Source: a virus | Taxonomy: Duplodnaviria > Heunggongvirae > Uroviricota > Caudoviricetes | Direction: 5' to 3' (one strand) | Virus record (IMG/VR): IMGVR_UViG_2703718833_000007 | Coordinates: 1-64,000 of that record | DNA length: 64,000 bases | Part shown: positions 2,556 through 41,681 of the stretch, piece after piece | Layout of the letters: the number at the start of each line of letters is the position of its first letter | Numbering within the stretch: the first letter of the stretch is position 1 | Made by a program: the position numbers and the translations under genes | The notes under the pieces: model-generated | Seen by the model: only the letters and a program-made list of their open reading frames with translations | Told to the model about the DNA's origin: nothing | Database searches by the model: none

Positions 2556-3971
2556 TTAAAAAGATGCGTTATTCTGATTGTTTCGTTGGTTAAAACGGCT
2601 TGTGCGATGATTCATTGACTGAATACACGCTGCGGCTGCGCGCGCCTGGTCGCATGGCAAGATATTACCGTTGTCATCAAACCGCTGGTAAACAGTTCCA
2701 GACTTACCATGACGGTTTTTTGACACAATGATTTCCATGTATTCGCGGGCAACAGACTGCTCGTCGTAATACCCATCGCGGTAAACCATGATTATTCTGT
2801 CGGCATCTTGCTCAAGGTTGCCGGAATCACGAAGATCAGAATTATTAGGGCGCTTGTTTGGTCGTTCCTCAACTCGTCGTGATAATTGCGCCAGCGCTAA
2901 CACTGGAACGCGCAATTCTTTCGCCATCATCTTCAACGACCATGACAATTGCCCAACAGCGAGATCATGACGTTCTGCCTTAGCCAGCTTCATCAACCCT
3001 ATGTAGTCAATCATTACCATACCCAGGTTGGGATGTTCCTGTTTCATCCGTTCCGTGGTGGCGCGTATTTCCTCAACCGTTAACTGCGACGCGTCAACGA
3101 TCCACACATCAAGATTAGCAAGTGCGCTCATACCCTGGCCGACATGCGCCCAACCCTCATCATCAAGTTTTACAGGATTGCGCAGGCAGTCAGTTGATAA
3201 ATTACCAGCGCCAGCGATAGCGCGTTCAGTCATCTGATCGAGTGACATTTCAAGCGTGAATAACAAAACGCCAACCCGCTGATCCTTGCTGCCAGGGTAA
3301 GGGCGTTCAGCAGCAGCGCGGGCAATTGCCAGCGCCAACGCAGATTTACCAGACCCAGGGCGTCCGGCGAGAAGCACCAGATCAGTAGCGTTAATGCCGC
3401 CTAACATTTCGTCGAGTGGTTCTATCCCTGTTTTGATGTTGTCAGAATTGACACCGCATTCCATGCGCTTACTTAAAACTTCCGTGTATTCCTGGACAGC
3501 ATCGCGCAACAGAACAGGGATAATCTTGTCTTTCGTTACCTTTAATTTTGAATACCGGGAATCAAAATCTTTCATCGTCTCTTTGACGACCTCAAGCGTC
3601 CCCGTCTCCAGTTTGTAGCGCATATCGTCGATGAGTTCCAACATCTGCCGCCGCTGGTGCTCTTCACGTAGTAGCTGTGCGTATCCCTTCAGGTTGGCAG
3701 CAGACGGGCACGATCTCGCTGTTTGCATTAGCGGTACGAAATTTTCATTACCAATCTCATCACCGACCAGCAATGCATCGATGAGATTCCTGTTTCTGGC
3801 TTGTGCCCGGATAATTTCAAAAGCCCGCTTATACAGCGGAATAGTGAACACTTCAGGATCAAGCGTAGCGAGAACATCTTGCGCGTTAGGGGTTAGGCCA
3901 CCTAACAGCAGCCCGCCGATAACTGACGCCTCACGTTCCTGCCGTAGTGAGTTTATTTGCTCAGTTACCAT
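2556..3971 (-). CDS. DnaB-family replicative DNA helicase
   Basis: 471 aa; Walker A GRPGSGKSALAL and DnaB C-terminal RecA-like domain motifs. Confidence 0.85.
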   Translation of the reverse strand: MVTEQINSLRQEREASVIGGLLLGGLTPNAQDVLATLDPEVFTIPLYKRAFEIIRAQARNRNLIDALLVGDEIGNENFVPLMQTARSCPSAANLKGYAQLLREEHQRRQMLELIDDMRYKLETGTLEVVKETMKDFDSRYSKLKVTKDKIIPVLLRDAVQEYTEVLSKRMECGVNSDNIKTGIEPLDEMLGGINATDLVLLAGRPGSGKSALALAIARAAAERPYPGSKDQRVGVLLFTLEMSLDQMTERAIAGAGNLSTDCLRNPVKLDDEGWAHVGQGMSALANLDVWIVDASQLTVEEIRATTERMKQEHPNLGMVMIDYIGLMKLAKAERHDLAVGQLSWSLKMMAKELRVPVLALAQLSRRVEERPNKRPNNSDLRDSGNLEQDADRIIMVYRDGYYDEQSVAREYMEIIVSKNRHGKSGTVYQRFDDNGNILPCDQARAAAACIQSMNHRTSRFNQRNNQNNASF

Positions 3972-4510
3972 TATGTTATTGCCTCCGGTTTACAAAATGT
4001 ATTTTCATCTGGTGAAGAAATACCGTGGTTATGGTGATAGCCATATTTTATTTCAGCTTCACGCCGCGCCCTTACAGCATCATCATATGATTTCCCCCAG
4101 TACACGCTTATAGTTTTTCTTTTGCCATTTTTACTCCATACTACTATTCTTGATCTCCATACTTTTTTTATTTTATCCCAATAAACGCCAACGCAACCGC
4201 TAGTGTTATCTATTGGCTTCTTTGCGTTTCTTGCATTTTCCCACGCATAAACAAGTCTTAAATTTTCAATTCTATCGTCACCTGGCATGTGATTTATATG
4301 ATCAATCATCATTCCATCAGGGATAGGGCCATTAAACATTTCCCAAACAATTCTATGTCTAAGAAAATATTTTTTATTAATAACTATTTGCCAATAACCT
4401 ATGCTCCCCCTACATCCTGCCACATCACCGGGTTTTATTCTTGTTTTGTATCTGTGTTCTTTCCAGTACAAAACACCATTGCTATAAATAAATAATTTAC
4501 TCCATTCCAT
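3971..4510 (-). CDS. HNH endonuclease with AP2 domain (homing-endonuclease-like), copy 1
   Basis: HNH_3-like DHINH...N motif, AP2-like segment, C-terminal KYGYHHNHG; start taken at internal ATG 4510 to avoid 160-nt overlap. Confidence 0.75.
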   Translation of the reverse strand: MEWSKLFIYSNGVLYWKEHRYKTRIKPGDVAGCRGSIGYWQIVINKKYFLRHRIVWEMFNGPIPDGMMIDHINHMPGDDRIENLRLVYAWENARNAKKPIDNTSGCVGVYWDKIKKVWRSRIVVWSKNGKRKTISVYWGKSYDDAVRARREAEIKYGYHHNHGISSPDENTFCKPEAIT

Positions 4511-5624
4511 AATTAGACATCCCAGGTCTATACACAAAGCGCCCAATCTCGCCATATTCAGGACTGTAAATGATAACAGCAGCGCAACGTTGCGAACGCC
4601 ACCCACCACGGGCCGAATAAGCATCTTTAGCAGCCAATGTTCCGTGATGTTCGACAACGCCTAACGATGTTTCAATAACAGATTGATGGTGTAAATGGCC
4701 TACATGCGCGTAAACATATTTAGATTTACCGAAATCATCCCGCCAGTCAGAAACACAGGCAGCAAGTAAATTTTCTGGCTTTTTGATAGTGTGCCCGTGG
4801 TGGTAAGCAAGGAATGTTTTGCCGTACTGTGTGTGGTGGACGATGGCAGGGGACACGTCAACCTTTACGCGCGGTTCATCTTCGTAAAAAGCCGACAGCG
4901 CAGCACGTAGCCAGATCATTCCTGACTGGTCGTGATTGCCTTCAAGTACCTGTATTTCTACCTCCTTGTGATTCAGCAACATTTTCCCAACAGCACGCCT
5001 TACAGATCTGATAACCACATAAACAAGTTTTGCGTAGCGTGAATCGCAATCCAGGACGTGATTGCTTGATGGCGTAACTGGCAACAGCCCGTCAGAATGC
5101 GCCACATCACCGCCTAACAACAATACAGCTTTTTCAGACATCGGCGCAGCGCCTACCGCGTAGTCAAAGAAGTCATTTAACACGCGCTCAGCGATCCCAG
5201 TGTCGTAGCTCTCGCCGCATTCAGCTTTATGGGCAAGTGCCCCGATATGCAAATCAAATACCGGATAAAGGGCAAGACTTTTTTGAAAATCAATTTCAGG
5301 CACTGGCACGGCCTCCGCGCGTGGTATTTCCTCCGTGAATGCGTCGCGGGCAGCTTCCATTAGCCTTTCCATTTCATCACGGTCACGGGCAGTTTTAATC
5401 CAGCGCATGACCGTATTCCCAGCCTTATCGACAAGAACAGATTCACCAGTAACGCCAAAACCCGGCGCGCGGCGTGTTGATAACAAACCGCGTTTCGCCA
5501 GCTTTGCGCCCAGACGCTCGACGTTGCGTTTTGACATGCCGTATTTTTCAGCGATCTGCTTGTACGTTAAACCGTTGTTATATTCAGCGATCAATTGTTC
5601 ATCGCTGATTTTTCTTTGCGACAT
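4497..5624 (-). CDS. HTH domain fused to calcineurin-like metallophosphoesterase
   Basis: N-terminal HTH (LTYKQIAEKYGMSKRNVERL); phosphoesterase motifs DLHIG, GGDVAHSD, GNHD, GHLHH. Confidence 0.55.
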   Translation of the reverse strand: MSQRKISDEQLIAEYNNGLTYKQIAEKYGMSKRNVERLGAKLAKRGLLSTRRAPGFGVTGESVLVDKAGNTVMRWIKTARDRDEMERLMEAARDAFTEEIPRAEAVPVPEIDFQKSLALYPVFDLHIGALAHKAECGESYDTGIAERVLNDFFDYAVGAAPMSEKAVLLLGGDVAHSDGLLPVTPSSNHVLDCDSRYAKLVYVVIRSVRRAVGKMLLNHKEVEIQVLEGNHDQSGMIWLRAALSAFYEDEPRVKVDVSPAIVHHTQYGKTFLAYHHGHTIKKPENLLAACVSDWRDDFGKSKYVYAHVGHLHHQSVIETSLGVVEHHGTLAAKDAYSARGGWRSQRCAAVIIYSPEYGEIGRFVYRPGMSNYGME

Positions 5625-5655
5625 AATGTTACTTCCTCCGGTTTACTATATGTAT

Positions 5656-6426
5656 TTATTCAGAAAAAATAATATTTATCAGTTCATTAAATCTTGATTC
5701 GTAGAAATGAGGTTGAGTCTCTCGCGGATTAGTTGGATTGGTTACGTTTTTCGCGTACAAACGACCGTAAGCTGTGACGTTCCAAAATCTCTTTTCGCCG
5801 CAACGTGCTTTACGATACTTGCGTTCCACAATACCTTTGCGCTCAAGTATTGGATAAACTTCACGCGCATTCATGCCAACGTTATTTTCATCTAGCAATG
5901 CTGTAAGAGATTTTGTCACGCGGCTTGATCCATCCACCGCATCAGCAGGCGCATCAATAGCATAATGCGGAAGGATAGGAGGAATATTATATTCCTTTTC
6001 AATCTTCTGAAGCATTCCTAATTTTCCTGAATTACTCATATTCAGCATTCTACTCGCTGTTTCAGCGAAGGCTAGAACATTGCCGATCTGCGCGTTACCG
6101 TAATTTGGAACAGCATTTTGCCGTACTGCATTTTCAAGTTCCTGCCAGCGGTCAACGAGCCGCGCCGTAAATTCAGGGCAGTTTTGAGCCACGACAATGA
6201 TGCTATCTCGTTTGCCCTGTTCGCCTTCAAAAATATAGACATTAACAAACCTGTTAGGACTAAGTGATTGTTTATTCTCAACTTTCCCCATTGGGGGTAG
6301 TTGAATTATCCCCCTCTGTGCCATGCGTTCTATAGACTGTTTTACTTTATCGTGACGATTGCCTAGTAGTTCCGCAATTTCAAAACTATTCATCTTAACA
6401 GCATCAAAAACCATTAAGTCACTCAT
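5656..6426 (-). CDS. Rha-family phage regulatory protein / antirepressor-like
   Basis: N-terminal region resembles phage regulatory protein Rha; start set at ATG 6426 with GGAG RBS. Confidence 0.55.
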   Translation of the reverse strand: MSDLMVFDAVKMNSFEIAELLGNRHDKVKQSIERMAQRGIIQLPPMGKVENKQSLSPNRFVNVYIFEGEQGKRDSIIVVAQNCPEFTARLVDRWQELENAVRQNAVPNYGNAQIGNVLAFAETASRMLNMSNSGKLGMLQKIEKEYNIPPILPHYAIDAPADAVDGSSRVTKSLTALLDENNVGMNAREVYPILERKGIVERKYRKARCGEKRFWNVTAYGRLYAKNVTNPTNPRETQPHFYESRFNELINIIFSE

Positions 6427-6557
6427 TGTAATTTCTCCGTAAAACGCTCTACAACGCAAAATCCCACCGCGTAACCCATTTGCACAGGTTGCAGTGTCTT
6501 ATTGCGTCAGAGGCGCTTTCAGGTGGCTAATTTTTGATTTACAGACTGGTAGGTAGG

Positions 6558-9786: not shown

Positions 9787-10440
9787 GTGAAAACAGAGTT
9801 ACACAAAAAACTGTGGACGATTCAGCAAACGCTGAACGCGCCTAAAAATCAGCGTAATAATTTCGGCGGGTATAATTACAGATCAGCGGAGGATATTTTA
9901 GAAGCGGTTAAACCACTGCTTCAAAATATCACGCTGACTGTTAGTGATGAAATTGTCCTGATCGGCAATCGCTATTACGTGAAAGCAACGGCGACGCTAA
10001 GCGACGGTGAAGATGAAATAGCGGTAACGGCTTACGCCAGGGAGGAAGAAAGCAAGAAGGGAATGGACGCAAGCCAGCTAACAGGAGCAACATCAAGTTA
10101 CGCGCGGAAATATGCTTTGAACGGATTGTTCTGCATTGACGACGCCCGCGATCCTGATACTGACGCATACGCGAAGCAGACAGGCCAGCAGCCACGCCAG
10201 CAGAAAAATACGCCAAAACAGCAACCTAATCAGAAACCACAGCAGCAGAAAGCGCCGCCAAATCCTGATGAGGTGTTAGCACGTTTTTGTGATGCGGCAG
10301 CGAAAGCGCAGGACGAAAAAACACTAAGGGAAATATTCGGTAAATGTTGGAAGCTGTTACCTGAAAATTCAGAGCAACGGCAGAAAGCGCAAGATTGTTA
10401 CCAGATCCGTAAGGATGAACTGAATGGAACAATTAACTAA
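9787..10440 (+). CDS. Erf-family single-strand annealing protein
   Basis: 217 aa; Erf-like N-terminal domain, Q/P-rich C-terminus; GTG start with AAGGAG RBS. Confidence 0.7.
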   Translation: MKTELHKKLWTIQQTLNAPKNQRNNFGGYNYRSAEDILEAVKPLLQNITLTVSDEIVLIGNRYYVKATATLSDGEDEIAVTAYAREEESKKGMDASQLTGATSSYARKYALNGLFCIDDARDPDTDAYAKQTGQQPRQQKNTPKQQPNQKPQQQKAPPNPDEVLARFCDAAAKAQDEKTLREIFGKCWKLLPENSEQRQKAQDCYQIRKDELNGTIN

Positions 10441-11020
10441 AAAATGCACAAAATGCGGCAGAATCCTGCCGCTTAACTCTTTCCTGAAGCACAAATCATG
10501 CAAATACGGCGTAGCTGGTACATGTAAGGATTGCGCAAAGGTATACAGGGAAGCCAATAAAGACAAAATAGCCGAGCAAAATAGAAGATGGAGGGAAAAA
10601 CACAAGGAAGAAATTCGAGAAAAGGATAGAAAATACTACGAAGAACACAAAGAAGAATGTAATAAGCGAGCGAAAGAGTATCGTAAAAATAACAAAGAAA
10701 AAATATTGGAAAAGAAAAATAATTGGGTAAGAAGAAACGAGGAAAGGTTAAAGGAGTATAGGAGACAATACCACGAAGATTATAAAGAAAGAAATAAGGC
10801 GGAACTAAAGGCAAGAACAAAACTAAGCAACGCCATTAGAGATGGTAAAGTATTAAGGCCAAATAAATGTGATAGGTGCGGGAAAAAGTGCACTCCTGAT
10901 GGGCATCATTGGAATTATGCATATCCGCTAAATGTTGTTTGGTTATGCCGTTCTTGTCATAAGATAGTGCATTTTAAGTTTGGGTGTATACACGAAAACA
11001 TTAACGGGGAGATCGGTTAA
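10424..11020 (+). CDS. zinc-ribbon / Lys-Glu-rich / HNH-like nuclease-motif protein
   Basis: N-terminal CxxC...CxxC, highly charged KE-rich middle, C-terminal CxxC...HH...CxxCH HNH-like motif; A-rich composition. Confidence 0.45.
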   Translation: MEQLTKKCTKCGRILPLNSFLKHKSCKYGVAGTCKDCAKVYREANKDKIAEQNRRWREKHKEEIREKDRKYYEEHKEECNKRAKEYRKNNKEKILEKKNNWVRRNEERLKEYRRQYHEDYKERNKAELKARTKLSNAIRDGKVLRPNKCDRCGKKCTPDGHHWNYAYPLNVVWLCRSCHKIVHFKFGCIHENINGEIG

Positions 11021-15433: not shown

Positions 15434-15854
15434 TGCGGCAGATTTACTACGAATCGCAGCGGAAACAATAGAGCAAAGGGGTAAACAAAACGGATACGAC
15501 AGAAAAGAGGAAAAATCAGCGCCAAAAATAGCCACTATTTACAACGCTAAGAAGGGTACAAATTTAACCCCGCTTGATGTATGGGATCTGTTGATTTGTC
15601 TCAAGGAGGCGCGTTTAGAGGCCATTTTGGTAAATGGTTCTGACCCTACTGATACTTTGGTTGACTTGATTAGCTACAGCGCACTAAAAGCTGAGCAGAT
15701 ATTAAGCGATCATGAGGAAGAGCAAAAGAAAAAACAGTTCACTGCTCTTAATCCTCAATGTGGTTGTATTTCAACTCGGCTTGATTTGAGTTTTGACAGA
15801 TCTGAAGCTATTCGCGATAAGAGGTATGACCCAAATGAAAAAGGTGGCAATTGA
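15426..15854 (+). CDS. hypothetical protein (142 aa)
   Basis: Start at ATG 15426 with AAGAGGTG RBS. Confidence 0.4.
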   Translation: MTSAADLLRIAAETIEQRGKQNGYDRKEEKSAPKIATIYNAKKGTNLTPLDVWDLLICLKEARLEAILVNGSDPTDTLVDLISYSALKAEQILSDHEEEQKKKQFTALNPQCGCISTRLDLSFDRSEAIRDKRYDPNEKGGN

Positions 15855-16338
15855 CAGGTTATTAGCCTGCGTTTATGTCGCCGTTTTCGTGATCATCAAC
15901 CTTATTGTTAACCATTGCGGCCCGTGGGTAATTCCGATCACCACGGTAGCCGCTGTGTGTGTCAATATGATGATCCGTGACTTCTTGCTGTATGACGGCG
16001 GCTTGAAATGGTCTGCTACAACATGCGCCGCCGCTGGCGCAATCACGGTAATGATAAATTACGATGCTGGAATGGTAGCGATCGCGTCATTCGTTGCGGT
16101 TGTTTCCGGTGCGCTTATATCTGGAGGTGTTTACCGGGTTTTGCCTGGTGATTTCGATTCTAAGCGCTGGCCTGCAAACATAGCTTCAGCCATCGGGGAT
16201 GCGTTAATTTTCCCGACGCTATCGTTTATGGCGTTTATGCCGGAAATATCAGCGATGCAGTTTATCTCAAAAATGGCAGCGGTAACGGTGATCACTATCA
16301 TCATGCGCCGCTATTTCACGTTTGAGGGTAGAAAATGA
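15835..16338 (+). CDS. integral membrane protein, possible YhhQ-like queuosine-precursor transporter family
   Basis: 167 aa, multiple TM helices; segment VYRVLPG..SKRWPANIASAIGDALIF resembles a conserved region of YhhQ-family transporters as recalled; tentative. Confidence 0.3.
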   Translation: MKKVAIDRLLACVYVAVFVIINLIVNHCGPWVIPITTVAAVCVNMMIRDFLLYDGGLKWSATTCAAAGAITVMINYDAGMVAIASFVAVVSGALISGGVYRVLPGDFDSKRWPANIASAIGDALIFPTLSFMAFMPEISAMQFISKMAAVTVITIIMRRYFTFEGRK

Positions 16339-16862
16339 ATTGGGATGATTATTTTATATACAATCCGGACACAGGTAAGTTGTACTGGAAATATAGAAAT
16401 GACATAGAAGAATCAAGGCGTAAACAATGGAATGCGTGTAATGCTGGTCATGAGGTTGGACATATTGGCGGAAGCGGTGGGTGTCTTAATACAGCGCTTA
16501 CCGTTGGCGGAAAGCGTTATAATTTAAAAGTACATAGAATATGTTACGAGATGTACTATGGGCCAATACCTGAAGGTAAGGAGGTTGATCATATAAATCA
16601 CGTTAAAACAGATAATCGAGCCGTCAATCTTGGATTAAAAGACCATAAAGATAATATGCGCAACATGTCTTTAATGGTAAACAATACCAGTGGGTGCGCT
16701 GGTATCCATAAAAATAAACATGGTAAATGGGTTGTTAGAATCGGTGGAGGCAAAAGAGGTAATAGAATTTATATAGGGTGTTTTTCTGATATCAATGACG
16801 CAATAAAAGCTAGGCGCGACGCTGAAAGAAAGTATGGCTATCATGAAAATCACGGCAAATAG
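16335..16862 (+). CDS. HNH endonuclease with AP2 domain, copy 2
   Basis: VDHINH...N HNH_3 motif, AP2-like segment, C-terminal KYGYHENHGK. Confidence 0.8.
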   Translation: MNWDDYFIYNPDTGKLYWKYRNDIEESRRKQWNACNAGHEVGHIGGSGGCLNTALTVGGKRYNLKVHRICYEMYYGPIPEGKEVDHINHVKTDNRAVNLGLKDHKDNMRNMSLMVNNTSGCAGIHKNKHGKWVVRIGGGKRGNRIYIGCFSDINDAIKARRDAERKYGYHENHGK

Positions 16863-17121
16863 AACAACCACGCCACCGCCGCGCGGCTTTGCCCGTGCTG
16901 TATTCCTGGCTAACGACCGGGCCATCAATCGTGCTACGCTCAACCGCGTTTTACCGGACTGAAATTTACAAAATGGCGTCATTGCGTGATGTGGATCACA
17001 TAATGGCGCTTTTCACCTTGTTCTGACGTATCCGTTTTGTATACTTCAAACAAGCAAAATGCTCTTTAAAAATCCGGCAGCGCTGAAATGCGTAGAAATC
17101 ACCTGAAAAGGAGAGAGCATT

Positions 17122-24009: not shown

Positions 24010-24501
24010 ATGATTAGCCAATCGCTGAAAAACCGACTAACTAAGGCGGCGGCTGGTGGAACGTTAGCCATTGCATCTGTTTTGCTTGTATGGGTTGAGG
24101 GTACGGCTTACGAGCCTTATTACGATACCGGAGGCGTGCTAACTGTATGCAATGGCATAACCGGCCATGATGTTGTCCCTGGTAAGAGATATACACCGGA
24201 TGAATGCGAGAGACTTTTGCAAAAGCATTTAACCGTTCACAAAAAGGCGGTTGATCGTTATGTAAAAGTTGACATGAATGATTATCAACGCGCAGCGCTA
24301 ATTAGCTTTTCATACAATATCGGGGTTGACGCTTTCAAAAAATCAACCTTGTTAAAAAAAATAAACAAAGGCGACTTTAAGGGAGCGTGTAAGGAGATGG
24401 ATCGCTGGGTGTATGACAATGGGAGATATATACAAGGCTTAAAGAATCGTCGCGATATTGAACGTGCTATATGTGAATGGGGCGTAACCAATGGAAAGTG
24501 A
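24010..24501 (+). CDS. SAR endolysin (GH24 phage lysozyme with N-terminal signal-anchor-release helix)
   Basis: 163 aa from ATG 24010; weakly hydrophobic Gly/Ala-rich N-terminal helix; lysozyme motifs recalled as similar to phage 21 R. Confidence 0.8.
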   Translation: MISQSLKNRLTKAAAGGTLAIASVLLVWVEGTAYEPYYDTGGVLTVCNGITGHDVVPGKRYTPDECERLLQKHLTVHKKAVDRYVKVDMNDYQRAALISFSYNIGVDAFKKSTLLKKINKGDFKGACKEMDRWVYDNGRYIQGLKNRRDIERAICEWGVTNGK

Positions 24502-25012
24502 TGATGAACTAAAACGAAAGCTACACTACGATCCAGCGACAGGTATTTTCACCTATAAGATTAGTCCTCACGGGAGAATCAAGGCCGGAAGCGTAGCCGG
24601 GTGTAAGCATAAAAGCGGATACATACACATAGGAAGATATAAAGCGCATCGCCTTGCGTGGTTTTTCCATTATGGAGTGTGGCCCGAAAAGGACATTGAC
24701 CATATTAATGGAATAAAAACCGACAACAGGATAGTAAACCTGCGAGAAACAGATGATGCGCATAACTGCAGAAACAAGAAACATATTGCCACTCACACAT
24801 TGTCTGCATTCAGGGGTGTTAGCTACCACAAAACAGAGAGAAGCAAGCCTAAATGGCGAGTAAGAATTACCGACAATGAAGGTAAGCGTATATCTATTGG
24901 TTTATTTGACTCACTAGACGAAGCGATCGCCGCTCGCATTTTGGCGGAAAACTTTTTCTATGGTGAATATGCACCTTCGATGGGTTGCGAGGGTGAAACA
25001 TGGACAAGGTGA
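24491..25012 (+). CDS. HNH endonuclease with AP2 domain, copy 3 (divergent), inserted between endolysin and Rz
   Basis: IDHINGIKTDNRIVNL HNH_3 motif and AP2-like RGV...W segment. Confidence 0.7.
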   Translation: MESDDELKRKLHYDPATGIFTYKISPHGRIKAGSVAGCKHKSGYIHIGRYKAHRLAWFFHYGVWPEKDIDHINGIKTDNRIVNLRETDDAHNCRNKKHIATHTLSAFRGVSYHKTERSKPKWRVRITDNEGKRISIGLFDSLDEAIAARILAENFFYGEYAPSMGCEGETWTR

Positions 25013-26999: not shown

Positions 27000-27485
27000 A
27001 TGGCCCGCACTAAAAAGGCAAAGGCTGACGATAAAAAGCCAGCAGCTAAAAAGGTGGGCCGTCCGCATGGTTATACCGAAGAAAAGGCATTAGAGATCTG
27101 TGAGCTGGTGGCGGACGGTCAGAGCGTTAACAAAATTTCAAAAATGCCAGGTATGCCAACACGTTCGACAATCCTTAAGTGGTTCCGTGATGTGCCTGAA
27201 TTTTCGGACATGTACGTGAGAGCGAAGGAGATCGGTTTTGAGGTATTAGCTGATGAGATCATCGATATAGCTGACGCAGCTGAGAATATTGATAAGGATG
27301 AATTGCGCCGCCATCAATTAATGATTGAAACCCGTAAATGGCTATTGGCAAAACTGCAACCGCGTAAATATGGTGAACGCGTCACGCAGGAAATCGTTGG
27401 TAACAGGGAGGAATCACCCGTCCAGGTTGAAGTCACGAAAGAAGAGATCGCCCGCATCGTCCAGGAAGTAGAAGACGAGGTGTGA
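27000..27485 (+). CDS. terminase small subunit
   Basis: 161 aa; basic N-terminus, HTH-like segment, directly upstream of large terminase; GAGGTGA RBS. Confidence 0.65.
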   Translation: MARTKKAKADDKKPAAKKVGRPHGYTEEKALEICELVADGQSVNKISKMPGMPTRSTILKWFRDVPEFSDMYVRAKEIGFEVLADEIIDIADAAENIDKDELRRHQLMIETRKWLLAKLQPRKYGERVTQEIVGNREESPVQVEVTKEEIARIVQEVEDEV

Positions 27486-28966
27486 TTATGTTGACAATCA
27501 AAGAACGAGTTATTCAGTCCAAATGTGAAAACGATGGCCTGTTTTTCAATCGCTATTTCTATAAACAAGCGAACGGAACGAAGATGTTAATCTCAGGCCA
27601 TCATTTAGCTATCCGTGATGCACTGCAACGCGTTATTAATGGTGAGATCACCCGCCTCATCATTAACATCCCCCCAGGGTACGGCAAAACCATGATCGCA
27701 ACTATCAACATGATGGCGCGGTCACTCGCAATAAATCCCCGCACAAGATTCCTTCACGTTTCCTATTCCAACAACCTGGCATTACTCAATTCCTCGACTG
27801 TAAGAAACATGATCTGTACGCCTGAATATCAGGCAATGTGGCCCATGAAGATCCGCAACGATGCCAACAGTAAATCGATGTGGTGGACTGAATACGGTGG
27901 CGGCGTGTATGCAACGTCATCGCTTGGCCAGGTAACTGGGTTCCGTGCAGGGTATATGGAACCGGGATTTAACGGCGCGTTAATCATCGACGACCCATTA
28001 AAACCGGCTGACGCTTACTCTGACGTGGTGAGAAAGCAGGTAAACACCAACTATAACGACACACTTGCTTCACGTCTGGCAGTGCAAACAACGCCTGTCA
28101 TCGTCATCATGCAGCGCATCCACTACGATGATTTGTCCGGCTACTTGCTACGCGGTGGGAGCGGTGAAAAGTGGTATCACCTTAACCTGCCAGTGAAGAT
28201 CGACAATAGCGTTGACTATCGGGATTTGTACCCTGAAAACGAGTTCGCAATCCCTATCGCTCACAACCTGCCTGATGGCTGGCTGTGGCCTAAAAAGCAC
28301 AATGACGCCCATGAAGCTGGACTGAAAGCACACAGGCGGTCATTTGAAGCCCAGTACATGCAGCGCCCGCGTAAATTCGACGAAGAGGGTGCATTGTGGA
28401 CTGAAGCCATGATAACCGCAGCGCACCGGATGCAGATAACGCAGGATAAGGTTCGCACGGTGATAGCCATAGACCCGGCGACAACGTCATCTGACGAATC
28501 GGACGAAACGGGGATCGTGGCATGTTCCGCCTATGGTGGCGGCAAGAATGCTCAGTATTCTGTTGATGGCGACTACTCAGGCCGCATGTCTCCTAACGAC
28601 TGGGCGCAAGCCTCAATGAACGCCTACAACATCCATGAAGCTGACGCGATAGTTATCGAAACCAACCAGGGCGGCGAAATGGCAGAGGCCACGTTGCGTA
28701 ATGCCGGATTCAAGGGCCGCATTGTTAAGGTGCACGCAAGCAAAGGTAAGTTCGCCCGTGCTGAACCAATATCCGCACTATATGCGCAGGGAAGGGTAGC
28801 CCACACTGGCAGCCTGTACACGCTGGAGAATCAAATGATGGAATACGTGCCAGCCACCGCAAAAAAATCCCCTGACCGTATGGACGCTATGGTATGGGGA
28901 ATCACTGAATTAAGCCAACCGCAGGCAATGGGCCTCATGTTACCGAAGCGCCTGCGCGGATTTTAA
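27482..28966 (+). CDS. terminase large subunit (likely ATG start at 27488)
   Basis: 494 aa; P-loop-like PPGYGKT, ATPase plus nuclease arrangement. Confidence 0.8.
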   Translation: MIMLTIKERVIQSKCENDGLFFNRYFYKQANGTKMLISGHHLAIRDALQRVINGEITRLIINIPPGYGKTMIATINMMARSLAINPRTRFLHVSYSNNLALLNSSTVRNMICTPEYQAMWPMKIRNDANSKSMWWTEYGGGVYATSSLGQVTGFRAGYMEPGFNGALIIDDPLKPADAYSDVVRKQVNTNYNDTLASRLAVQTTPVIVIMQRIHYDDLSGYLLRGGSGEKWYHLNLPVKIDNSVDYRDLYPENEFAIPIAHNLPDGWLWPKKHNDAHEAGLKAHRRSFEAQYMQRPRKFDEEGALWTEAMITAAHRMQITQDKVRTVIAIDPATTSSDESDETGIVACSAYGGGKNAQYSVDGDYSGRMSPNDWAQASMNAYNIHEADAIVIETNQGGEMAEATLRNAGFKGRIVKVHASKGKFARAEPISALYAQGRVAHTGSLYTLENQMMEYVPATAKKSPDRMDAMVWGITELSQPQAMGLMLPKRLRGF

Positions 28967-29044
28967 AATCTGACTCACAATCCCCCACAAGTTTTTCTAT
29001 TTTTCGCGTAGCAACGCGTAAACATGTATTCAGGAGTAAACATT

Positions 29045-30415
29045 ATGCCATCAAATTTAGATTTGGCGGTTAATGCTGCCTTGTCACAACGCCAGGCGGC
29101 CTATGCCCGCTATACCGCAGCACACCCATTCACGATGGGGATAGATGCCAAACGCGATGCTGCGTGGAGTGAATACGGATTCAAAGAAGAGATCACGTAT
29201 GAAGACCTGTACAAACTGTACAGACGCGGTGGTATCGCTCACGGTGCTGTAGAGAAGATTGTTACTACGTGCTGGCGCACCATGCCGATGCTGATAGAAG
29301 GCACGGAAGACGAGAAAGCAGAAAAGGAAACACCGTGGGAAAGGGAAATCAAAAAGCAATTCGATAACAGATTTTGGCGTGTTATTGCCGAATGTGATCG
29401 CCGCCGCCTCATTGGTCGTTACGCTGGCCTGTTGATTCATGCCAGAGATAACCAGCCGTGGGAAAAGCCAGTCACAAAAGGCGTAGGTATTGCCAAATTT
29501 ACCCCGGTATGGGCTGGTGCTCTTACGCCGAAGGAGTTCGAAGAAGACCCGAACAGTGAAAATTATGGCCTGCCTACATGGTGGGAATACAAAGAACGCA
29601 TTAACAGTAAGACCATTGCCAGAAGAATCCACCCTGATCGCATATTCATCTTTGGCGACTATTCCGATGATGCCATCGCTTTCCTTGAACCTTCCTATAA
29701 CGCCTTTGTGTCACTGGAGAAGGTGGAAGGTGGTAGCGGTGAATCATTCCTGAAAAACGCCGCCCGTCAGCTTGCTATCTCATTCGATAAGGAAATTGAT
29801 TTCCGTTCCCTGGCCGCTACATACGATTGCGACGTTACAGAGTTACGCGAAAGATTCAATGAGGCTGCGGCTGAAATGAATAAGGGTAACGATGTGATGA
29901 TGGCATTACAAGGGGCGACAGTAAGCCCGCTGGTGACTGCCGTATCTGATCCGTCAGCAACCTATGACGTCAACCTGCAAACCGCCGCCGCTGGCATTGA
30001 TATTCCAACCCGCATCCTGGTTGGGAACCAGCAGGGCGAACGCGCATCAACCGAAGATCTGCGTTACTTCAACAGCCGCTGTATGACCCGCAGGGAAGAG
30101 ATTGGCGGTGAGCTTGAGGATTTATTCAGCAAGATGGCAGATCTGCGCCTTATCAGTATGCCAGTAGATATATCAGTGATATGGGACGACCTGAACGCCA
30201 TGACCAAAGCCGAACTACTGGAAGCTGCACACAAGATGGCGCAAATCAATCAGGCTTGCCTTGCTACTGGTGAAGAAATATTTAGCGGTGATGAGATCCG
30301 CGAGGCTGCCGGATACGATGGCCCTGCCAGTGTAGTAGAAATGGAAGAGGAAAACGATGATGAAGGTGAAGAAGATAATCAGGCGAATACCTCCAGCCGC
30401 GATAATGCCATCTAA
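29045..30415 (+). CDS. portal protein
   Basis: About 456 aa, follows terminase, acidic C-terminus. Confidence 0.65.
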   Translation: MPSNLDLAVNAALSQRQAAYARYTAAHPFTMGIDAKRDAAWSEYGFKEEITYEDLYKLYRRGGIAHGAVEKIVTTCWRTMPMLIEGTEDEKAEKETPWEREIKKQFDNRFWRVIAECDRRRLIGRYAGLLIHARDNQPWEKPVTKGVGIAKFTPVWAGALTPKEFEEDPNSENYGLPTWWEYKERINSKTIARRIHPDRIFIFGDYSDDAIAFLEPSYNAFVSLEKVEGGSGESFLKNAARQLAISFDKEIDFRSLAATYDCDVTELRERFNEAAAEMNKGNDVMMALQGATVSPLVTAVSDPSATYDVNLQTAAAGIDIPTRILVGNQQGERASTEDLRYFNSRCMTRREEIGGELEDLFSKMADLRLISMPVDISVIWDDLNAMTKAELLEAAHKMAQINQACLATGEEIFSGDEIREAAGYDGPASVVEMEEENDDEGEEDNQANTSSRDNAI

Positions 30416-31301
30416 CACCGAAGACCCGACCATGACAGGGAAGTTAAGGTCTGGTGCTATCAAGCGTTTTAAATCCTGCCTGAAGAAAGTTGCGGATCCG
30501 TATATTGCCATACTGGACAGGATGCAATATAGCCTTGCTGTTAATAAAAAATACACCTTTCAGATCTACATTGACGAATTACATGACTTGCTGGAAGACG
30601 CCAGCGACATGATTGATGAGATATTCGAGTTAACAGACCCGGAAAACTTCTGGTTCTGGCAGGAATACGTGAAAGTGGCATATCAGCGCGGCACTTCCCA
30701 GGAATACGCTAACCTCGCTAACCAGTCAGTCACATATTCCAGGGCTTACCCTGAAGTGTCGGCGGTATTAACCAGTCAGACCTATCGAACGCGCCTTGCT
30801 CTGGTGCGTACCCGCGTATTTGAAGAGATGCGCGGGCTGACAGCACAGATCAAGAAGGATATGGCACGCCGATTAACTGAAGGCATGGCCCGTGGTTTAA
30901 ATCCACTTGAAATAGCGCGCACATTGCAGCAGGAAACGCAATTACCGCTATACCGGTGCAAACGTATTGCCCGCACTGAAATATGCACAGCGTTGCGCAC
31001 AGCGCGTATGGATGAGGCTGAAGCGGCGACGGAAGAGCTTAATCTGCGCACTATGCAGATGCACATTTCGGCATTGTCGCCGACTACCAGGTTGTCACAC
31101 GCACAGCGGCACGGGAAAACTTACACCATAGAAGAGCAGCGCGAATGGTGGAGCAGATCCCCAAATTCAATTAACTGCAAATGTAGCACTATTACCGTGA
31201 TGGTCGATGAATCTGGTAACATATTAAACAAACGAATATTAGAGCGGGCGCAAGAAAATTATAAGGTTGCGCACGCTAAATATGGCGAAGATTGGGAGTG
31301 A
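30405..31301 (+). CDS. head morphogenesis protein (Mu gpF / SPP1 gp7-like)
   Basis: About 298 aa following portal; start ATG 30405 overlaps portal stop. Confidence 0.55.
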   Translation: MPSNTEDPTMTGKLRSGAIKRFKSCLKKVADPYIAILDRMQYSLAVNKKYTFQIYIDELHDLLEDASDMIDEIFELTDPENFWFWQEYVKVAYQRGTSQEYANLANQSVTYSRAYPEVSAVLTSQTYRTRLALVRTRVFEEMRGLTAQIKKDMARRLTEGMARGLNPLEIARTLQQETQLPLYRCKRIARTEICTALRTARMDEAEAATEELNLRTMQMHISALSPTTRLSHAQRHGKTYTIEEQREWWSRSPNSINCKCSTITVMVDESGNILNKRILERAQENYKVAHAKYGEDWE

Positions 31302-31305: not shown

Positions 31306-31797
31306 GTGAATGAAGTGATTAATTGGCATGATTATTTCACGTATAAATCAGGCCATATTTACTGGAAAATATCACCAACTAACGGCGTTCATATTGGCGA
31401 CCATGCGGGGAATGACAGCGGGTTGGGCTACTTGCGTGTTCGTGTCAATTATAGGTTATATCTTGTTAGTAGAATCATATGGGAAATGCACAACGGCCCG
31501 ATCCCGGAAGGGTACGAGATAGACCACATTGACCATAACACACTAAATAACGATATAACGAACCTAAGGATGGTAAGTCATTACGAAAATACACTAAATG
31601 CGCCAATGAGAAAGGATAATAAAAGCGGTTATGTCGGTGTTATTTGGCATAAGGCGTCCCGTAAATGGATGGCGTATGTACAAGTGAATAAGAAGCGCAA
31701 ACATTTAGGTTTATTTGACAGCATAGATAAGGCCGTAGCTGCCCGCCGACAGGCTGAAAAAGAGAACAATTATCACCCAAATCACGGGAGTGTTTAA
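31306..31797 (+). CDS. HNH endonuclease with AP2 domain, copy 4
   Basis: GTG start 31306 with GGAG RBS; IDHIDHN HNH_3 motif; AP2-like segment; C-terminal NYHPNHG. Confidence 0.75.
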   Translation: MNEVINWHDYFTYKSGHIYWKISPTNGVHIGDHAGNDSGLGYLRVRVNYRLYLVSRIIWEMHNGPIPEGYEIDHIDHNTLNNDITNLRMVSHYENTLNAPMRKDNKSGYVGVIWHKASRKWMAYVQVNKKRKHLGLFDSIDKAVAARRQAEKENNYHPNHGSV

Positions 31798-31798: not shown

Positions 31799-33064
31799 AT
31801 GTCAGATTTAATTCAAGTAAACACAAAAATTTCATGTAATAAAATCCGCAGGGAGACGTACAACGGGAGGGAGCATCTCGTAGTTCCTTCGTATACACTC
31901 CCATTTGGTATCGTTATGAATCGGGAATATTACCCAGAAGCTGAAATCATTGCTAATTATCAATCTCTGGAAGGAACACTCGCACCGTTGGGCCATCCTA
32001 CGGTTGACGGTGAATTTGTTTCCGCATTTAGCCCGGAAGGTCTGAATATTGGCTTTTGTGGAGCGTGGAACAGGAATGTTGAATTGCGCGGGAACCGTGT
32101 TTATGTGGAGAAATGGGTGGATGTTGAAACTGCCAGTCATTCAGAACAAGGACGCGAATTATTAAGCCGACTGGAAGCACTGGAAAAAGGCGAAAGCAAA
32201 GATCCGATCTGGTCATCTGTTGCCGTATATCGTCAGCGTATGCCAGCTACTGAAGAGATGAAAGCCCAGGGTGCTGATAGCGTTGTCAAAATCATGTCAA
32301 TTGACCATGACGCCATCTTACTGCATGAACCGCCAGCCGCATCGCCTGAACAGGGCGTTGGCCTGATGGTTAACACTGACCAGGCGAAGCCGTTAATGGC
32401 TGTGGCAATGAAAGAAAACAGCTATCGCACGCTTGAAAGACAATTGGAAGAAGCTGCGCGTGAACTGTTCCACGATGCAGATTATGTATATGTTGTGGAC
32501 TTCACTGATAAAGAAGTGACGATTGCCACTAATACCGAAAGTGCTCAAGTTTGCACATATGAAAAACAGGCTGATAAAATTATTCTCAATAATGGCGAGC
32601 TTGCAACCAATGAGGAAAGTAAATCCTGGTTCGCTCAGTTCGCTGAACACTTATCTAATCTTTTCTCCCTGAATGAAAAAATTAAGGCCAATAAATCGGA
32701 GGGTGAACCCATGCCTTTGACCAAAGAAGAACGCGCCGAACTGGTGAAAGAAATTAACGAAAGCATCACCGCTAATATGGCTAATGCAATCGCTGAAGCA
32801 CTTAAACCAGTACAGGCAAGCGTTGAAGAATTACAGACCAATCAAAAAGCGATTAAAGAAGAGATCGCAGCAAACGCAGATAAAGAAGTAGCAGAAAAAC
32901 GCGCCGCAGTAGCAAAAGTACACGGCGAAATTGTTGCTAACGCATTAAATGGTGAAGCGTTAGAAGCAATGTTTAAATCCCTGGGCAAAGCCGCGCCGAT
33001 GGCAACCAACGCAGCAAGCGAAGGTAAAAAAGGCGAAGTCCCGGACTTTAACACTTATTTCTAA
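31799..33064 (+). CDS. putative capsid scaffolding / prohead-protease-like protein
   Basis: About 420 aa with coiled-coil C-terminal half, between morphogenesis protein and capsid gene. Confidence 0.45.
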   Translation: MSDLIQVNTKISCNKIRRETYNGREHLVVPSYTLPFGIVMNREYYPEAEIIANYQSLEGTLAPLGHPTVDGEFVSAFSPEGLNIGFCGAWNRNVELRGNRVYVEKWVDVETASHSEQGRELLSRLEALEKGESKDPIWSSVAVYRQRMPATEEMKAQGADSVVKIMSIDHDAILLHEPPAASPEQGVGLMVNTDQAKPLMAVAMKENSYRTLERQLEEAARELFHDADYVYVVDFTDKEVTIATNTESAQVCTYEKQADKIILNNGELATNEESKSWFAQFAEHLSNLFSLNEKIKANKSEGEPMPLTKEERAELVKEINESITANMANAIAEALKPVQASVEELQTNQKAIKEEIAANADKEVAEKRAAVAKVHGEIVANALNGEALEAMFKSLGKAAPMATNAASEGKKGEVPDFNTYF

Positions 33065-36439: not shown

Positions 36440-36452
36440 GAGGTAACTAAAC

Positions 36453-37665: not shown

Positions 37666-37679
37666 CCGGGCCTTTATCT

Positions 37680-37982
37680 TTATTTGTATGCTGCAAATCT
37701 GCATCTTGCCTCATCCAGATCGTGAATATCGTACACGTTATCGTAAATGTAAGTTGCAACCTGTGCTTTCTGTACGTCAGTTGCGTTAGGGAACTCCATG
37801 CTTACAAAAGTCACTGCATCAACGTAGTTCTTAAACATTTTTTTGTTAACGCACAGTGCGTAAATCAATACACCAGGCCAGAAAATCAGCGCGCCAATGA
37901 ATGCCATGAGCATATTCAGATGTTTTTTCTGCGCTACAGCCATAGTTACTACGAAGCCGATGAGTGCAATTACCAGTTCCAT
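37680..37982 (-). CDS. reverse-oriented membrane protein (100 aa, two TM helices)
   Basis: Two hydrophobic helices then soluble C-terminal domain; opposite strand inside tail module. Confidence 0.45.
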   Translation of the reverse strand: MELVIALIGFVVTMAVAQKKHLNMLMAFIGALIFWPGVLIYALCVNKKMFKNYVDAVTFVSMEFPNATDVQKAQVATYIYDNVYDIHDLDEARCRFAAYK

Positions 37983-37992
37983 GATACACCTC

Positions 37993-38100
37993 TCATTTAC
38001 GTTTATCTTCGGTTGTCATTGCCAGCACTAGCACAGCCATCACATTAAATGCTAACCATTCTGTAATATATACATCTATAACCGTTTTGATTGCGTCCAT
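37993..38100 (-). CDS. reverse-oriented small TM peptide (35 aa)
   Basis: MDAIKTVIDVYITEWLAFNVMAVLVLAMTTEDKRK; below track cutoff. Confidence 0.3.
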   Translation of the reverse strand: MDAIKTVIDVYITEWLAFNVMAVLVLAMTTEDKRK

Positions 38101-38113
38101 TTACCCGCCCCGC

Positions 38114-38200
38114 TTATTTCTTGTTTTTAAGTGCTTTCAGCATTTCTTCGATAAAGTCGGCATAGTGCTCATGCTCGTTGGGTCGGTAGTAGTTTTTCAT
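38114..38200 (-). CDS. reverse-oriented small peptide (28 aa)
   Basis: MKNYYRPNEHEHYADFIEEMLKALKNKK; AAGAGGA RBS 7 nt upstream. Confidence 0.25.
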   Translation of the reverse strand: MKNYYRPNEHEHYADFIEEMLKALKNKK

Positions 38201-38276
38201 TTTCTTATCCTCTTTTGCTTCCTCCGGTTAATCCGGCCTTCTAAATCCCTTTACTCTATCCCTTTCCTTTAGCCTC

Positions 38277-38320
38277 TTTATACAAAATGTATTCGTTGAA
38301 GTGAAGCCATTTTGTATAAA
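38277..38320. promoter_or_regulatory. 13-bp perfect inverted repeat (operator-like) between reverse mini-operon and tape measure gene
   Basis: TTTATACAAAATG at 38277-38289 and CATTTTGTATAAA at 38308-38320, 18-bp spacer. Confidence 0.45.
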
Positions 38321-38357
38321 ATAGAGATCAGGATCACACTTTTTACGAGGTTAAATC

Positions 38358-40703: not shown

Positions 40704-40709
40704 ACAAAA

Positions 40710-40736
40710 CCCCGGTACAATGCCGGGGCTATTTTT
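40710..40736. terminator. bidirectional rho-independent terminator
   Basis: CCCCGG-TACAATG-CCGGGG hairpin flanked by A-run and T-run. Confidence 0.55.
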
Positions 40737-40929
40737 AGTTGTTCTCAAAACTTGTATATCCTCTTTCAATTTTTCCACCGTGTACGCTTCTGGCAAATAC
40801 CGCGTCAGTATACCTGAAAAATGGGCATGTATATGTATCCCCTTTACTATCCATATATTTTAGCACCCATGCTATGCGTTTTACGTTGCTTTTATTTGCC
40901 GGATTTTTCATTTTATTTTTCCTCCGCAA
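40735..40929 (-). CDS. hypothetical protein, last gene of reverse cassette
   Basis: 64-aa track ORF; two further micro-ORFs possible between it and HNH gene, including 41013-41162. Confidence 0.3.
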   Translation of the reverse strand: MRRKNKMKNPANKSNVKRIAWVLKYMDSKGDTYTCPFFRYTDAVFARSVHGGKIERGYTSFENN

Positions 40930-41174
40930 ATCACAATCTTCCGTTTCTTGCTATATAGCTGCGAGCAAACATCACCTGCCAGATGTTCCAAATCTCACGC
41001 CACGTAAATTCATCATCTTCCATATCTCACACCATCGCGCTTGTATGGTTCGCCATCAGCAAACGGGATTAACTCATCGTTTGCCACCATTCGATTAAAC
41101 CAGTCTTTCAGAACAACCAGGGAGAACCGGATCCCGTAACTGTGCAATTCGCGCCACCTCATTTATGTGCCACC

Positions 41175-41681
41175 CTATTTACCGTGATTTGGATGAAAAC
41201 CGTATTTAATTTCGGATTCTTGCCTTGCCTTGATTGCATCATCTTTGCTTTTGAATACCCCTAAATGTTTTAATTTTCCGTTGATTCTGATAACTGCGCA
41301 CCATTTACGCAATCTTTCAAGCCAATAAACACCAGCACAGCCGGATTTATTATTATGGTTGCGACTTCTGTTGTGGTTATTGTCTTGGCAGGTAACTAGC
41401 CGCAAATTTTCTATATGGTTGTTTACCTTATTGTGATCGATATGATCTATTTCCATTCCTTCCGGGATTGGTCCGTTGTGCATTTCCCATATAATTCTAT
41501 GCTCTTGGTATATCCTCCTGTTAAACCCTACATGTATATACCCACTTCGTTTATGAAGGCACCCGGCTCGCTTTCCCGCATATCTTGAATTCCAGGTTTT
41601 GGAAACGCCATTTCTTGGCTTCCATAATATAGCGCCGTCACTGTATATAAAATAATCATTCCAGTTAATTACTTGTGACAT
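41175..41681 (-). CDS. HNH endonuclease with AP2 domain, copy 5
   Basis: IDHIDHN HNH_3 motif, AP2-like segment, C-terminal KYGFHPNHGK. Confidence 0.8.
   Translation of the reverse strand: MSQVINWNDYFIYSDGAILWKPRNGVSKTWNSRYAGKRAGCLHKRSGYIHVGFNRRIYQEHRIIWEMHNGPIPEGMEIDHIDHNKVNNHIENLRLVTCQDNNHNRSRNHNNKSGCAGVYWLERLRKWCAVIRINGKLKHLGVFKSKDDAIKARQESEIKYGFHPNHGK

Follow-up and report, generated by a model that had tools for sequence, protein, structure and literature searches.

The stretch analysed here, hereafter the window, comprises 64,000 nucleotides (positions 1 to 64,000 of the IMG/VR record IMGVR_UViG_2703718833_000007), most of which (~1-53300) is a prophage whose integrase lies past the left edge. 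A preliminary description of this DNA had assigned five open reading frames (ORFs) to HNH endonucleases with an AP2-like domain; all five are present at the following coordinates, and we refer to the genes as HNH1 to HNH5 and to their positions as sites S1 to S5.

HNH1, 3971-4510, minus strand: HNH_3 match (E = 1.3e-17) and AP2 match (E = 2.3e-6), guanine-plus-cytosine (GC) content 35.6%
HNH2, 16335-16862, plus strand: Pfam HNH_3 match (E = 3.2e-16)
HNH3, 24491-25012, plus strand: between the lysozyme and Rz genes, HNH_3 match (E = 5.3e-14) and AP2 match (E = 8.7e-5)
HNH4, 31306-31797, plus strand: GTG start at 31306, Pfam HNH_3 match (E = 2.5e-20)
HNH5, 41175-41681, minus strand: Pfam HNH_3 match (E = 4.2e-20), predicted AP2-fold C-terminal domain

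Comparison with nine related prophages and phages makes it likely that these are free-standing I-HmuI-like HNH(N)-AP2 homing-endonuclease genes, acquired independently of one another by a prophage of the mEpimmI group.

All five proteins score above the gathering threshold of Pfam HNH_3 (PF13392; 52-72 bits vs. 24.8, E = 5e-14 to 2.5e-20) and match PHROG 99, "HNH endonuclease", over their full length (E = 7.5e-49 to 1.2e-61). Amino acid identity to HNH1 is 38-47%, and among all five it is about 35-51%. D70, H71, N83, N92 and N95 (HNH1 numbering) do not vary among the five proteins, and D70/H71/N83/N92 align with D74/H75/N87/N96 of I-HmuI (VDH...NLR...N), which reportedly serve as catalytic or metal-binding residues. 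In an alignment of 77 sequences, D79, H80 and N92 (HNH5 numbering) are invariant, and N101, the equivalent of N96, is conserved in at least 90%. Thus, the catalytic residues are conserved, and the proposed family assignment stands unrefuted. When a profile of the five proteins was compared with the PDB, the N-terminal region and the nuclease core were covered by I-HmuI (1u3e, E = 7e-8), and the C-terminal part by the AP2 domain of WRI1 (E = 6e-5). The terminal motifs are less uniform than the sharing among four proteins first reported: W.DYF.Y is strict only in HNH2, HNH4 and HNH5, with the variant W.KLF.Y in HNH1, and KYG(Y/F)HxNHG is strict only in HNH1, HNH2 and HNH5, with the variant NNYHPNHG in HNH4; HNH3, which reads DHING, has neither motif.

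HNH5, the only protein modelled, gave an AlphaFold2 model with a mean predicted local distance difference test score (pLDDT) of 90.7, for which the top Foldseek match in the PDB was I-HmuI (1u3e; E = 8e-4, Foldseek probability 1.0), with several AP2 domains next. From the profile and model matches, the N-terminal motif therefore corresponds to the N-terminal beta-hairpin region of I-HmuI. The C-terminal domain of the model consists of strands 118-121, 126-133 and 136-143 and helix 146-160, and superimposes on 1gcc with a root-mean-square deviation (rmsd) of 1.1 Å over 48 columns (TMt 0.65) and on 7et5 with an rmsd of 1.4 Å, at weak Foldseek E values (0.1-0.2); in this predicted structure, the AP2 call is correct at the level of fold. 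All five proteins are, as predicted from sequence, intact I-HmuI-like HNH_3 nucleases with a putative AP2-fold C-terminal domain, and a single family of free-standing HNH(N)-AP2 endonuclease genes is borne out. The GC content of the five genes is 35.6-43.7%, vs. 45.5% for the prophage, with HNH1, HNH2 and HNH5 in the lowest 4% of windows. A relaxed tblastn search across the window found no additional HNH_3 copies or remnants.

The chromosomal flank of the prophage is 99.6-99.9% identical to many Escherichia coli genomes. Among 5426 complete E. coli genomes, the prophage segment 1-50000 nowhere exceeded ~90% identity over the greater part of its length; the matches, in 38 genomes for the first half and in 35 for the second half, are all to collinear relatives with 85-90% identity. 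Eight related genomes, which are listed below, were fetched complete; their nucleotide identity to the window is 82-90% (86.0% for UMNK88 and, over aligned positions, 89.3% for mEp515). The window prophage is collinear with the UMNK88 prophage and with mEp515 (PP180003.1), a cultured, plaque-forming phage from human faeces that propagates on K-12, as do other mEp phages (PMC11893012). The mEpimmI group (Negrete-Mendez et al. 2025, PMC11893012) includes both mEp515 and the UMNK88 prophage, and the window prophage is a member of this gut-prevalent group as well. The group is Nus-dependent, most of its members integrate in ydaM, crosses with a lambda tester gave zero viable progeny, and its describers class it as non-lambdoid (PMC11893012). 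The label of lambdoid prophage initially given to the window is at odds with this published class; the window does carry cI-like, Q, NinB, NinG and RusA genes. HNH genes and homing are absent from the main text of that paper; mEp515_11, _72 and _91 are already labelled homing or HNH endonucleases in GenBank. Compared with mEp515, the window prophage additionally has HNH2 and HNH3, and its HNH1 allele differs (60% amino acid identity to the mEp515 copy). The HNH_3 genes of the eight relatives are as follows.

WCHEC025970, LP-26-E1-261, UMNK88 and FAH: no HNH_3 gene in each
N921: two HNH_3 genes, between the DUF6378 gene and the next gene and between NinG and RusA
STEC308: two HNH_3 genes, the S2 ortholog and one between NinG and RusA
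mEp515: three HNH_3 genes (S1, S4, S5) and, between the tail I and J genes, a fourth with weak HNH_3 similarity
E21845/O/A: five HNH_3 genes, before erf, at S2, between NinG and RusA, at S4 and at S5

The weak gene of mEp515 (mEp515_105, L156 45978-46544), annotated as hypothetical, matches HNH_3 with a Pfam E of 1.6e-9 and is 27-35% identical to the window copies; the tail I-J junction where it lies counts as another insertion site and is unoccupied in the window. IMG/VR contigs of the same phage group add sites between TerS and TerL and between p68 and tail-M. In the mEpimmI group, there are at least 11 insertion sites, and the HNH_3 load is 0-5 per genome. The five copies of the window, previously regarded as a high load, are indeed at the top of this range but are not unique, E21845/O/A also having five.

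The neighbours of the five genes (DnaB, NinG, phage lysozyme, Rz, Mu-F-like head protein and ParE-like protein) are confirmed by Pfam. Each of the five genes points the same way as its neighbours and is tightly packed against them, and the gene junctions at which they lie are internal to the replication, nin, lysis, head and tail modules, in contrast to the module boundaries named in the preliminary description. HNH1 does not follow the helicase gene either; as transcribed, it comes after a metallophosphoesterase-like gene and precedes dnaB. The minus-strand accessory operon in which HNH5 is the final HNH_3 gene runs convergently to the tape-measure gene and terminates at a bidirectional terminator (40708-40730), the one clear feature in promoter and terminator scans around HNH5 and HNH2; promoter-like sites were no commoner in these scans than in shuffled sequence. 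A terminase-associated packaging role of the HK97 gp74 type was considered and rejected: none of the five genes adjoins TerS/TerL (27000-28966), and all are missing from several relatives.

For all five positions, exact empty alleles were identified in collinear relatives, with the junctions resolved to the nucleotide at S1, S3 and S4 and to a short interval at S2 and S5. Around the occupied sites, the following segments are linked to the endonuclease genes or to their insertion.

4511-4600, minus strand: linked diverged block at S1, the last ~80 nucleotides of the metallophosphoesterase-like gene, common to all HNH1 carriers
16879-16959, plus strand: remnant of a dcm-like gene at S2, its last 27 codons (tblastn with the Dcm-like protein of relative L002, residues 234-260, 92.6%)
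24075-24490, plus strand: diverged 3' two-thirds of the lysozyme gene, an HNH3-linked allele that blastn does not align to any of the eight relatives
31799-31842, plus strand: recoded start of the scaffold gene at S4, MSDLIQVNTKISCNK vs. MSKELIQVNTKLTANT
41031-41174, minus strand: downstream part of the insertion that holds HNH5, delimited by alignment to relatives and 97-100% identical to mEp515
41682-41874, minus strand: linked allele of the ParE-like gene, its 3' ~190 nucleotides, common to genomes with an occupied S5

At S1, HNH1 sits in the 18-base-pair (bp) spacer between the metallophosphoesterase-like gene (4497-5624) and dnaB (2556-3971), with ~526 bp inserted in place of ~7 bp of this spacer. 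The start of HNH1 overlaps the metallophosphoesterase-like gene by 14 nucleotides and its TAA stop overlaps the dnaB ATG; because HNH1 reads through the ancestral spacer, it has a 16-amino-acid C-terminal extension. In HNH1 carriers, the metallophosphoesterase-like gene has lost its ancestral stop, and its ORF extends nine codons into the insert. The site is empty in relatives L001-L006 and in L157. The differences fixed between carriers and non-carriers are concentrated at 4513-4591, the dnaB side having none, and the block 4511-4600 is a candidate target or co-conversion tract of S1. Same-site orthologs of HNH1 are 98%, 84% (frameshifted) and 60% (mEp515) identical in amino acid sequence. 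The frameshifted ortholog (L013 3001-3533, GCA_902838855.1) is split in two, each part being 84% identical, and represents a decaying copy. At 4572-4600, the empty alleles are GC-rich, with AGCCGCC/GCCGCC repeats, and every HNH1 carrier has GCGCAACGTTGCGA instead; the repeats recall the GCC-box of plant AP2 proteins, a resemblance seen at one site only that we do not claim as a recognition element.

At S2, HNH2 occupies the slot of a dcm-like methyltransferase gene, which in other relatives measures 765-789 bp. Its ATGA start overlaps an upstream membrane-protein gene (15793-16338), and ninG follows ~320 nucleotides downstream. Same-site orthologs are 93.6% identical in nucleotide sequence in STEC306-308 and 81.8% in E21845/O/A and RM9245 (93% and 81% in the protein ranking). 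A truncated dcm-like gene (47% amino acid identity) comes after the HNH2 ortholog of E21845/O/A. Most relatives, among them L002-L005, carry the dcm-like gene, and in the window the endonuclease gene has displaced this methyltransferase gene.

At S3, the exchanged segment (24075-24984) consists of the diverged 3' two-thirds of the lysozyme gene and HNH3, which overlaps the lysozyme gene by 11 nucleotides and Rz by 13 nucleotides. The end of HNH3, ...CEGETWTR*, is a remnant of the recipient lysozyme C-terminus (...CEWGETWTR* in the relatives), and so the overlapping Rz start at 25000 was kept intact. The lysozyme proteins of two HNH3 carriers (L008 and L009) are 93% and 96% identical to that of the window; HNH3-free relatives differ throughout. 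Same-site orthologs of HNH3 in L008-L010 show 86-88% amino acid identity (86-93% among database representatives), all located between lysozyme and Rz, as is a homolog with 61% identity in a Salmonella prophage (L011). These close relatives, as well as those of HNH1, came from a large protein database. By blastn in the 5426 complete E. coli genomes, HNH3 had no DNA homolog and HNH1 had only partial matches of 18-23%, so the two lineages are rare in finished genomes; peptide-pattern scans of IMG/VR for close relatives yielded one distant match for HNH1 and none for HNH3.

At S4, HNH4 starts 5 nucleotides past the Mu-F-like head gene (30357-31301) and stops 1 nucleotide before the ATG of the scaffold-like gene. 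According to the junction alignment, HNH4 uses the ribosome-binding site and GTG which begin the scaffold gene in empty-site relatives, and the 3' end of its cassette gives the scaffold gene a new ribosome-binding site and ATG along with a recoded first ~45 nucleotides. Four carriers and six non-carriers are separated by 16 fixed differences at 31800-31842, with zero on the Mu-F side. The tract 31799-31842 is the narrowest candidate for a target or immunity tract (~45 bp), and the candidate HNH4 target stretch in the empty scaffold allele is GTGAGTAAAGAATTGATTCAGGTTAATACCAAATTAACCGCTAATACC. Same-site orthologs of HNH4 were found in E21845/O/A (97.6% nucleotide identity; 98% for the protein), in an IMG/VR contig (L015, 95% amino acid identity) and in mEp515 (77%).

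At S5, the inserted segment is bounded on one side by the stop of the ParE-like gene (41669-41923), which the HNH5 start overlaps by 13 nucleotides, and on the other by a small conserved minus-strand ORF. Three carriers differ from six non-carriers by 46 fixed differences at 41684-41874, and by none beyond. At the same site in mEp515, mEp515_91 is 98.8% identical to HNH5 in amino acid sequence. Overall, the blocks of fixed differences are one-sided at S1, S4 and S5, S3 has a linked lysozyme allele, and at S2 the dcm-like gene is diverged (47% amino acid identity) or deleted.

A consistent trend was observed when the copies were ranked by similarity, whereby same-site orthologs share 60-99% of their amino acids and copies at any other site share no more than 54%; an exception to this match between lineage and site is the S5 copy of E21845/O/A, merely 51% identical to HNH5. 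Homologs at matching sites extend to metagenomic contigs and, for S3, to the Salmonella prophage. The best matches of each gene being same-site orthologs, the five copies were apparently acquired separately. The earlier designation of the five genes as diverged paralogs is thus appropriate insofar as they form a related family, but they are not in-genome duplicates, the nearest relatives being those at the same site in other phages. True paralogy by duplication or transposition within this genome, to which the common domain architecture and terminal motifs might point, as might the 57-88 bp of DNA at 71-78% identity that link some pairs, is extremely improbable, considering that the copies are only about 35-51% identical to one another, that the DNA similarity between them is short and confined to the catalytic core, and that each has a much closer same-site ortholog (81-99%) in another phage; in-genome duplication was rejected on this identity ranking.

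Two of the genes show the signature of recent transfer. In the comparison with mEp515, the HNH5 tract reaches 99.6-99.8% identity, including 506 identical bp; the median for this genome pair is 91.4%, and the 95th percentile is 95.9%. In the comparison with E21845/O/A, HNH4 reaches 97.6%, where the median is 83.4% and the 95th percentile 90.6%. Each of these tracts ranks first among ~357 windows of 500 bp in its own genome pair. Taken together, the intact nuclease, the exact empty alleles, the site-faithful lineages, the signs of recent transfer of HNH4 and HNH5, the one-sided recoded flanks and the occasional decaying copy lead us to read the five as homing-endonuclease genes; the frameshifted S1 ortholog fits because such copies are expected late in a cycle of invasion and decay. 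The suggestion of free-standing homing endonucleases made in the preliminary description is, accordingly, supported by the comparative evidence, in particular the empty alleles, the site-tied lineages and the linked flanks.

A number of observations weigh against homing. The Pfam AP2 model (PF00847) is matched below threshold by HNH1, HNH3 and HNH4 (28.3, 23.2 and 20.8 bits, respectively, vs. 33.3) and is not matched by HNH2 or HNH5. The similarity of HNH2 between carriers falls in the 5% upper tail and is not above that of its flanks, and the ranking of similarity against the genome background covers HNH2, HNH4 and HNH5, close orthologs of HNH1 and HNH3 being found only on short or draft contigs. 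S2 resembles a gene replacement, not a clean insertion. In an identity-step test, in which 600-bp flanks were compared with all genome positions for eight relatives (32 site-relative pairs), 4 of the 32 pairs were at or below 0.10, vs. 3.2 expected, and the median upper-tail fraction was 0.72; a modest identity step was seen only at S1. The proposed recombination hot spots are therefore recognisable as local linked tracts of ~45-430 bp, but not as an excess of larger mosaic breakpoints. Finally, the five ORFs are intact and subject to purifying selection (ratio of nonsynonymous to synonymous substitution rates, dN/dS, 0.05-0.29), and starts or stops overlap dnaB, Rz and the scaffold gene, suggestive of expression coupled with that of essential neighbours.

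The last two features would be expected if the HNH-AP2 proteins were kept for the benefit of the phage, as weapons of marker exclusion, in anti-defence or DNA processing, or in AP2-based regulation of the essential gene that follows. In Skunavirus, HNH endonucleases have been reported to cause marker exclusion when expressed (PMC12724721), and Barth et al. state that sequence alone cannot exclude domestication (PMC10448857). However, all five genes are dispensable, given that four related prophages have none and that mEp515 is without HNH2 and HNH3; no copy adjoins the terminase genes, unlike HK97 gp74; and a patchy, site-specific distribution with recent transfer is what selfish spread predicts. 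We consider phage benefit unlikely as an explanation, and it overlaps homing without replacing it.

The replacement of a dcm-like gene at S2, the arrival of HNH3 with a 430-nucleotide foreign lysozyme segment and the swapping of other accessory genes in the same regions, e.g. the antirepressor cassette (5680-6394), would suit a different scenario, in which the genes are passengers (morons) of ordinary modular or illegitimate recombination and their spread is not driven by their own nuclease. Passenger genes would hardly be expected to belong to one protein family at no fewer than 11 sites, with fidelity of lineage to site across diverged phages and even genera, to retain strictly conserved catalytic residues, to be inserted with nucleotide precision next to one-sided linked tracts, or to make up the single most similar windows between diverged genomes, and we judge this scenario very unlikely.

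Under the homing explanation, events would start in a cell that contains two related phage genomes, where the endonuclease would nick or cut the gene-free allele near the insertion point, within the neighbouring gene. The N-terminal beta-hairpin region and the C-terminal AP2 domain presumably bring the His-Me finger nuclease into position on its DNA substrate. Repair by recombination, templated by the carrier genome, would then copy the endonuclease gene along with a short stretch of the neighbour, and this stretch, being diverged, would presumably be uncleavable. The cassettes, which have no evident promoters of their own, would be spliced into existing operons such that both neighbours keep their translation signals. 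Cleavage, the target positions and unidirectional gene conversion at the five sites are what we infer from the allele comparisons, and the cleavage sites probably lie within the linked tracts, which in carriers would contain immune versions of these sites.

A more far-reaching possibility, doubtful at present, is that the group constitutes an arena of at least 11 sites, where an HNH(N)-AP2 nuclease and a pre-immunised, recoded piece of its neighbour would travel as a two-part unit, act as weapons between co-resident or superinfecting prophages and shape the dnaB-proximal, lysis, head and tail alleles in circulation. If so, the recoded scaffold start (31799-31842) would be a readable target/immunity pair for an AP2-guided nuclease, a class whose rules of specificity are, to our knowledge, essentially uncharacterised.

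Apart from the five HNH_3 genes, one further inserted gene appears to encode a nuclease.

10424-11020, plus strand: sixth inserted nuclease-like gene, between erf and ssb, 198 amino acids, GC content 37%

Its product is a zinc-ribbon protein with a C-terminal CxxC...H motif that matches PHROG 2340, 'endonuclease' (E = 1e-33), and, weakly, Endo VII and HNH PHROGs; it has no Pfam match and NCBIfam returned nothing useful, so that PHROGs alone classifies it. The 606-bp segment 10395-11000 is missing from seven of the eight relatives (L001-L006 and mEp515) and partly alignable in E21845/O/A. This is probably another mobile nuclease gene, of a family distinct from that of the five HNH_3 genes; the earlier count of inserted nucleases was right for HNH_3 and missed this sixth gene.

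Several other parts of the prophage vary or are worth recording. The antirepressor slot (5656-6459, minus strand) holds a swapped cassette (region 5680-6394), Rha-like in the window and BRO, KilAC, Ant, zinc-ribbon or absent in the relatives. The tail module, on the plus strand, is interrupted by minus-strand accessory genes at 41669-42150 (the protein with the ParE-like toxin domain and an upstream ORF of 68 amino acids) and at 37680-37982 (a membrane protein of 100 amino acids, its gene flanked by the DUF6246 and tape-measure genes); the cargo at these slots differs in the relatives, e.g. a TagO-like gene. The portal protein (29024-30415, plus strand; Phage_portal_3, E = 3e-19) has RefSeq orthologs in every relative named 'anti-CBASS protein Acb1 family protein', which looks like a misleading automatic name. 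The J-like tail-tip protein (45831-51170, plus strand; 1779 amino acids) has imperfect tandem repeats of 108 bp (36 amino acids) and 42 bp at 48389-49186 that encode a long coiled-coil-like array (…AIADETSARTQAISDVNASISTLDKKTDASV…). The tail fibre (51279-53216, plus strand), inside the right end of the prophage near zntB, ends in a Peptidase_S74 intramolecular chaperone domain (E = 3e-14). The remainder of the window is chromosomal or belongs to a second prophage.

53671-54654: zntB, to the right of the prophage, followed by dbpA and ttcA
57621-64000: integrase end of the Rac prophage, with intR (57621-58856) and the recET region

The layout beside zntB fits integration in ydaM, which adjoins zntB in E. 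coli K-12. Rac lies only ~4 kilobases (kb) from the first prophage, with zntB, dbpA and ttcA between them.

Within the mEpimmI group, the HNH genes form an accessory set, patchily distributed and exchanged recently. Their linkage to neighbouring sequence explains local patches of high divergence in genes that are otherwise conserved, namely at the 3' part of the lysozyme gene, the start of the scaffold gene and the 3' part of the ParE-like gene. Free-standing HNH(N)-AP2 genes are common in phages, but a defined target or homing has rarely been demonstrated for them. Since relatives such as mEp515 and mEp021 are cultured temperate K-12 phages, and both empty and occupied alleles are defined, the group offers a tractable system.

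Among known systems, the Xanthomonas oryzae phages Xp10, OP1 and Xop411 have genes with the same HNH(N) core without Cys dyads and a C-terminal AP2 domain, likewise multicopy (6-8 per ~45-kb siphovirus genome), with positions that vary among close relatives and with degenerate copies (Lee et al. 2007, PMC2248197); HNH3 directly matches Xp10 57R (47% over 81% of the query). Those phages are lytic, and the authors saw no conserved flanks and proposed sequence-independent insertion (PMC2248197), whereas the window prophage belongs to a temperate E. coli group in which each lineage is tied to one site and has a linked diverged flank. I-HmuI of Bacillus phage SPO1 (PDB 1u3e), the reference structure for nicking homing endonucleases of the HNH_3 type, has the same N-terminal DNA-binding beta-hairpin region, His-Me finger and equivalents of D74/H75/N87/N96; however, it is intron-encoded and ends in a helix-turn-helix, whereas the window proteins are free-standing with a predicted AP2-fold end, and overall identity is ~20%. 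The I-HmuI-like HNH genes of Skunavirus, interpreted as homing and as causing marker exclusion, show the same variable presence, location-tracking phylogeny and polymorphism of adjacent core genes (Yu et al. 2025, PMC12724721). They differ in that they belong to lytic phages of a lactococcal host, that AP2 is not mentioned in that paper, and that some functional tests were made there, whereas the window genes are known from sequence alone. The layout of SegF, SegG and MobE in phage T4 is the same, i.e. a gene between two conserved genes, with its target in the neighbour, co-converted flanks and a carrier allele protected by polymorphism (PMC2790892). The T4 Seg proteins are GIY-YIG enzymes, however, and MobE is an HNH protein with a zinc finger, not AP2; in T4, homing was shown experimentally, and the intronless form is attributed to Belle et al. 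2002, as cited in PMC12724721. Thus, the present finding confirms known biology rather than extending it, some members being already labelled in the GenBank record of mEp515, and the pattern in the window matches that of published free-standing HNH systems, including ICP1 (PMC2248197, PMC12724721, PMC10448857, PMC2790892).

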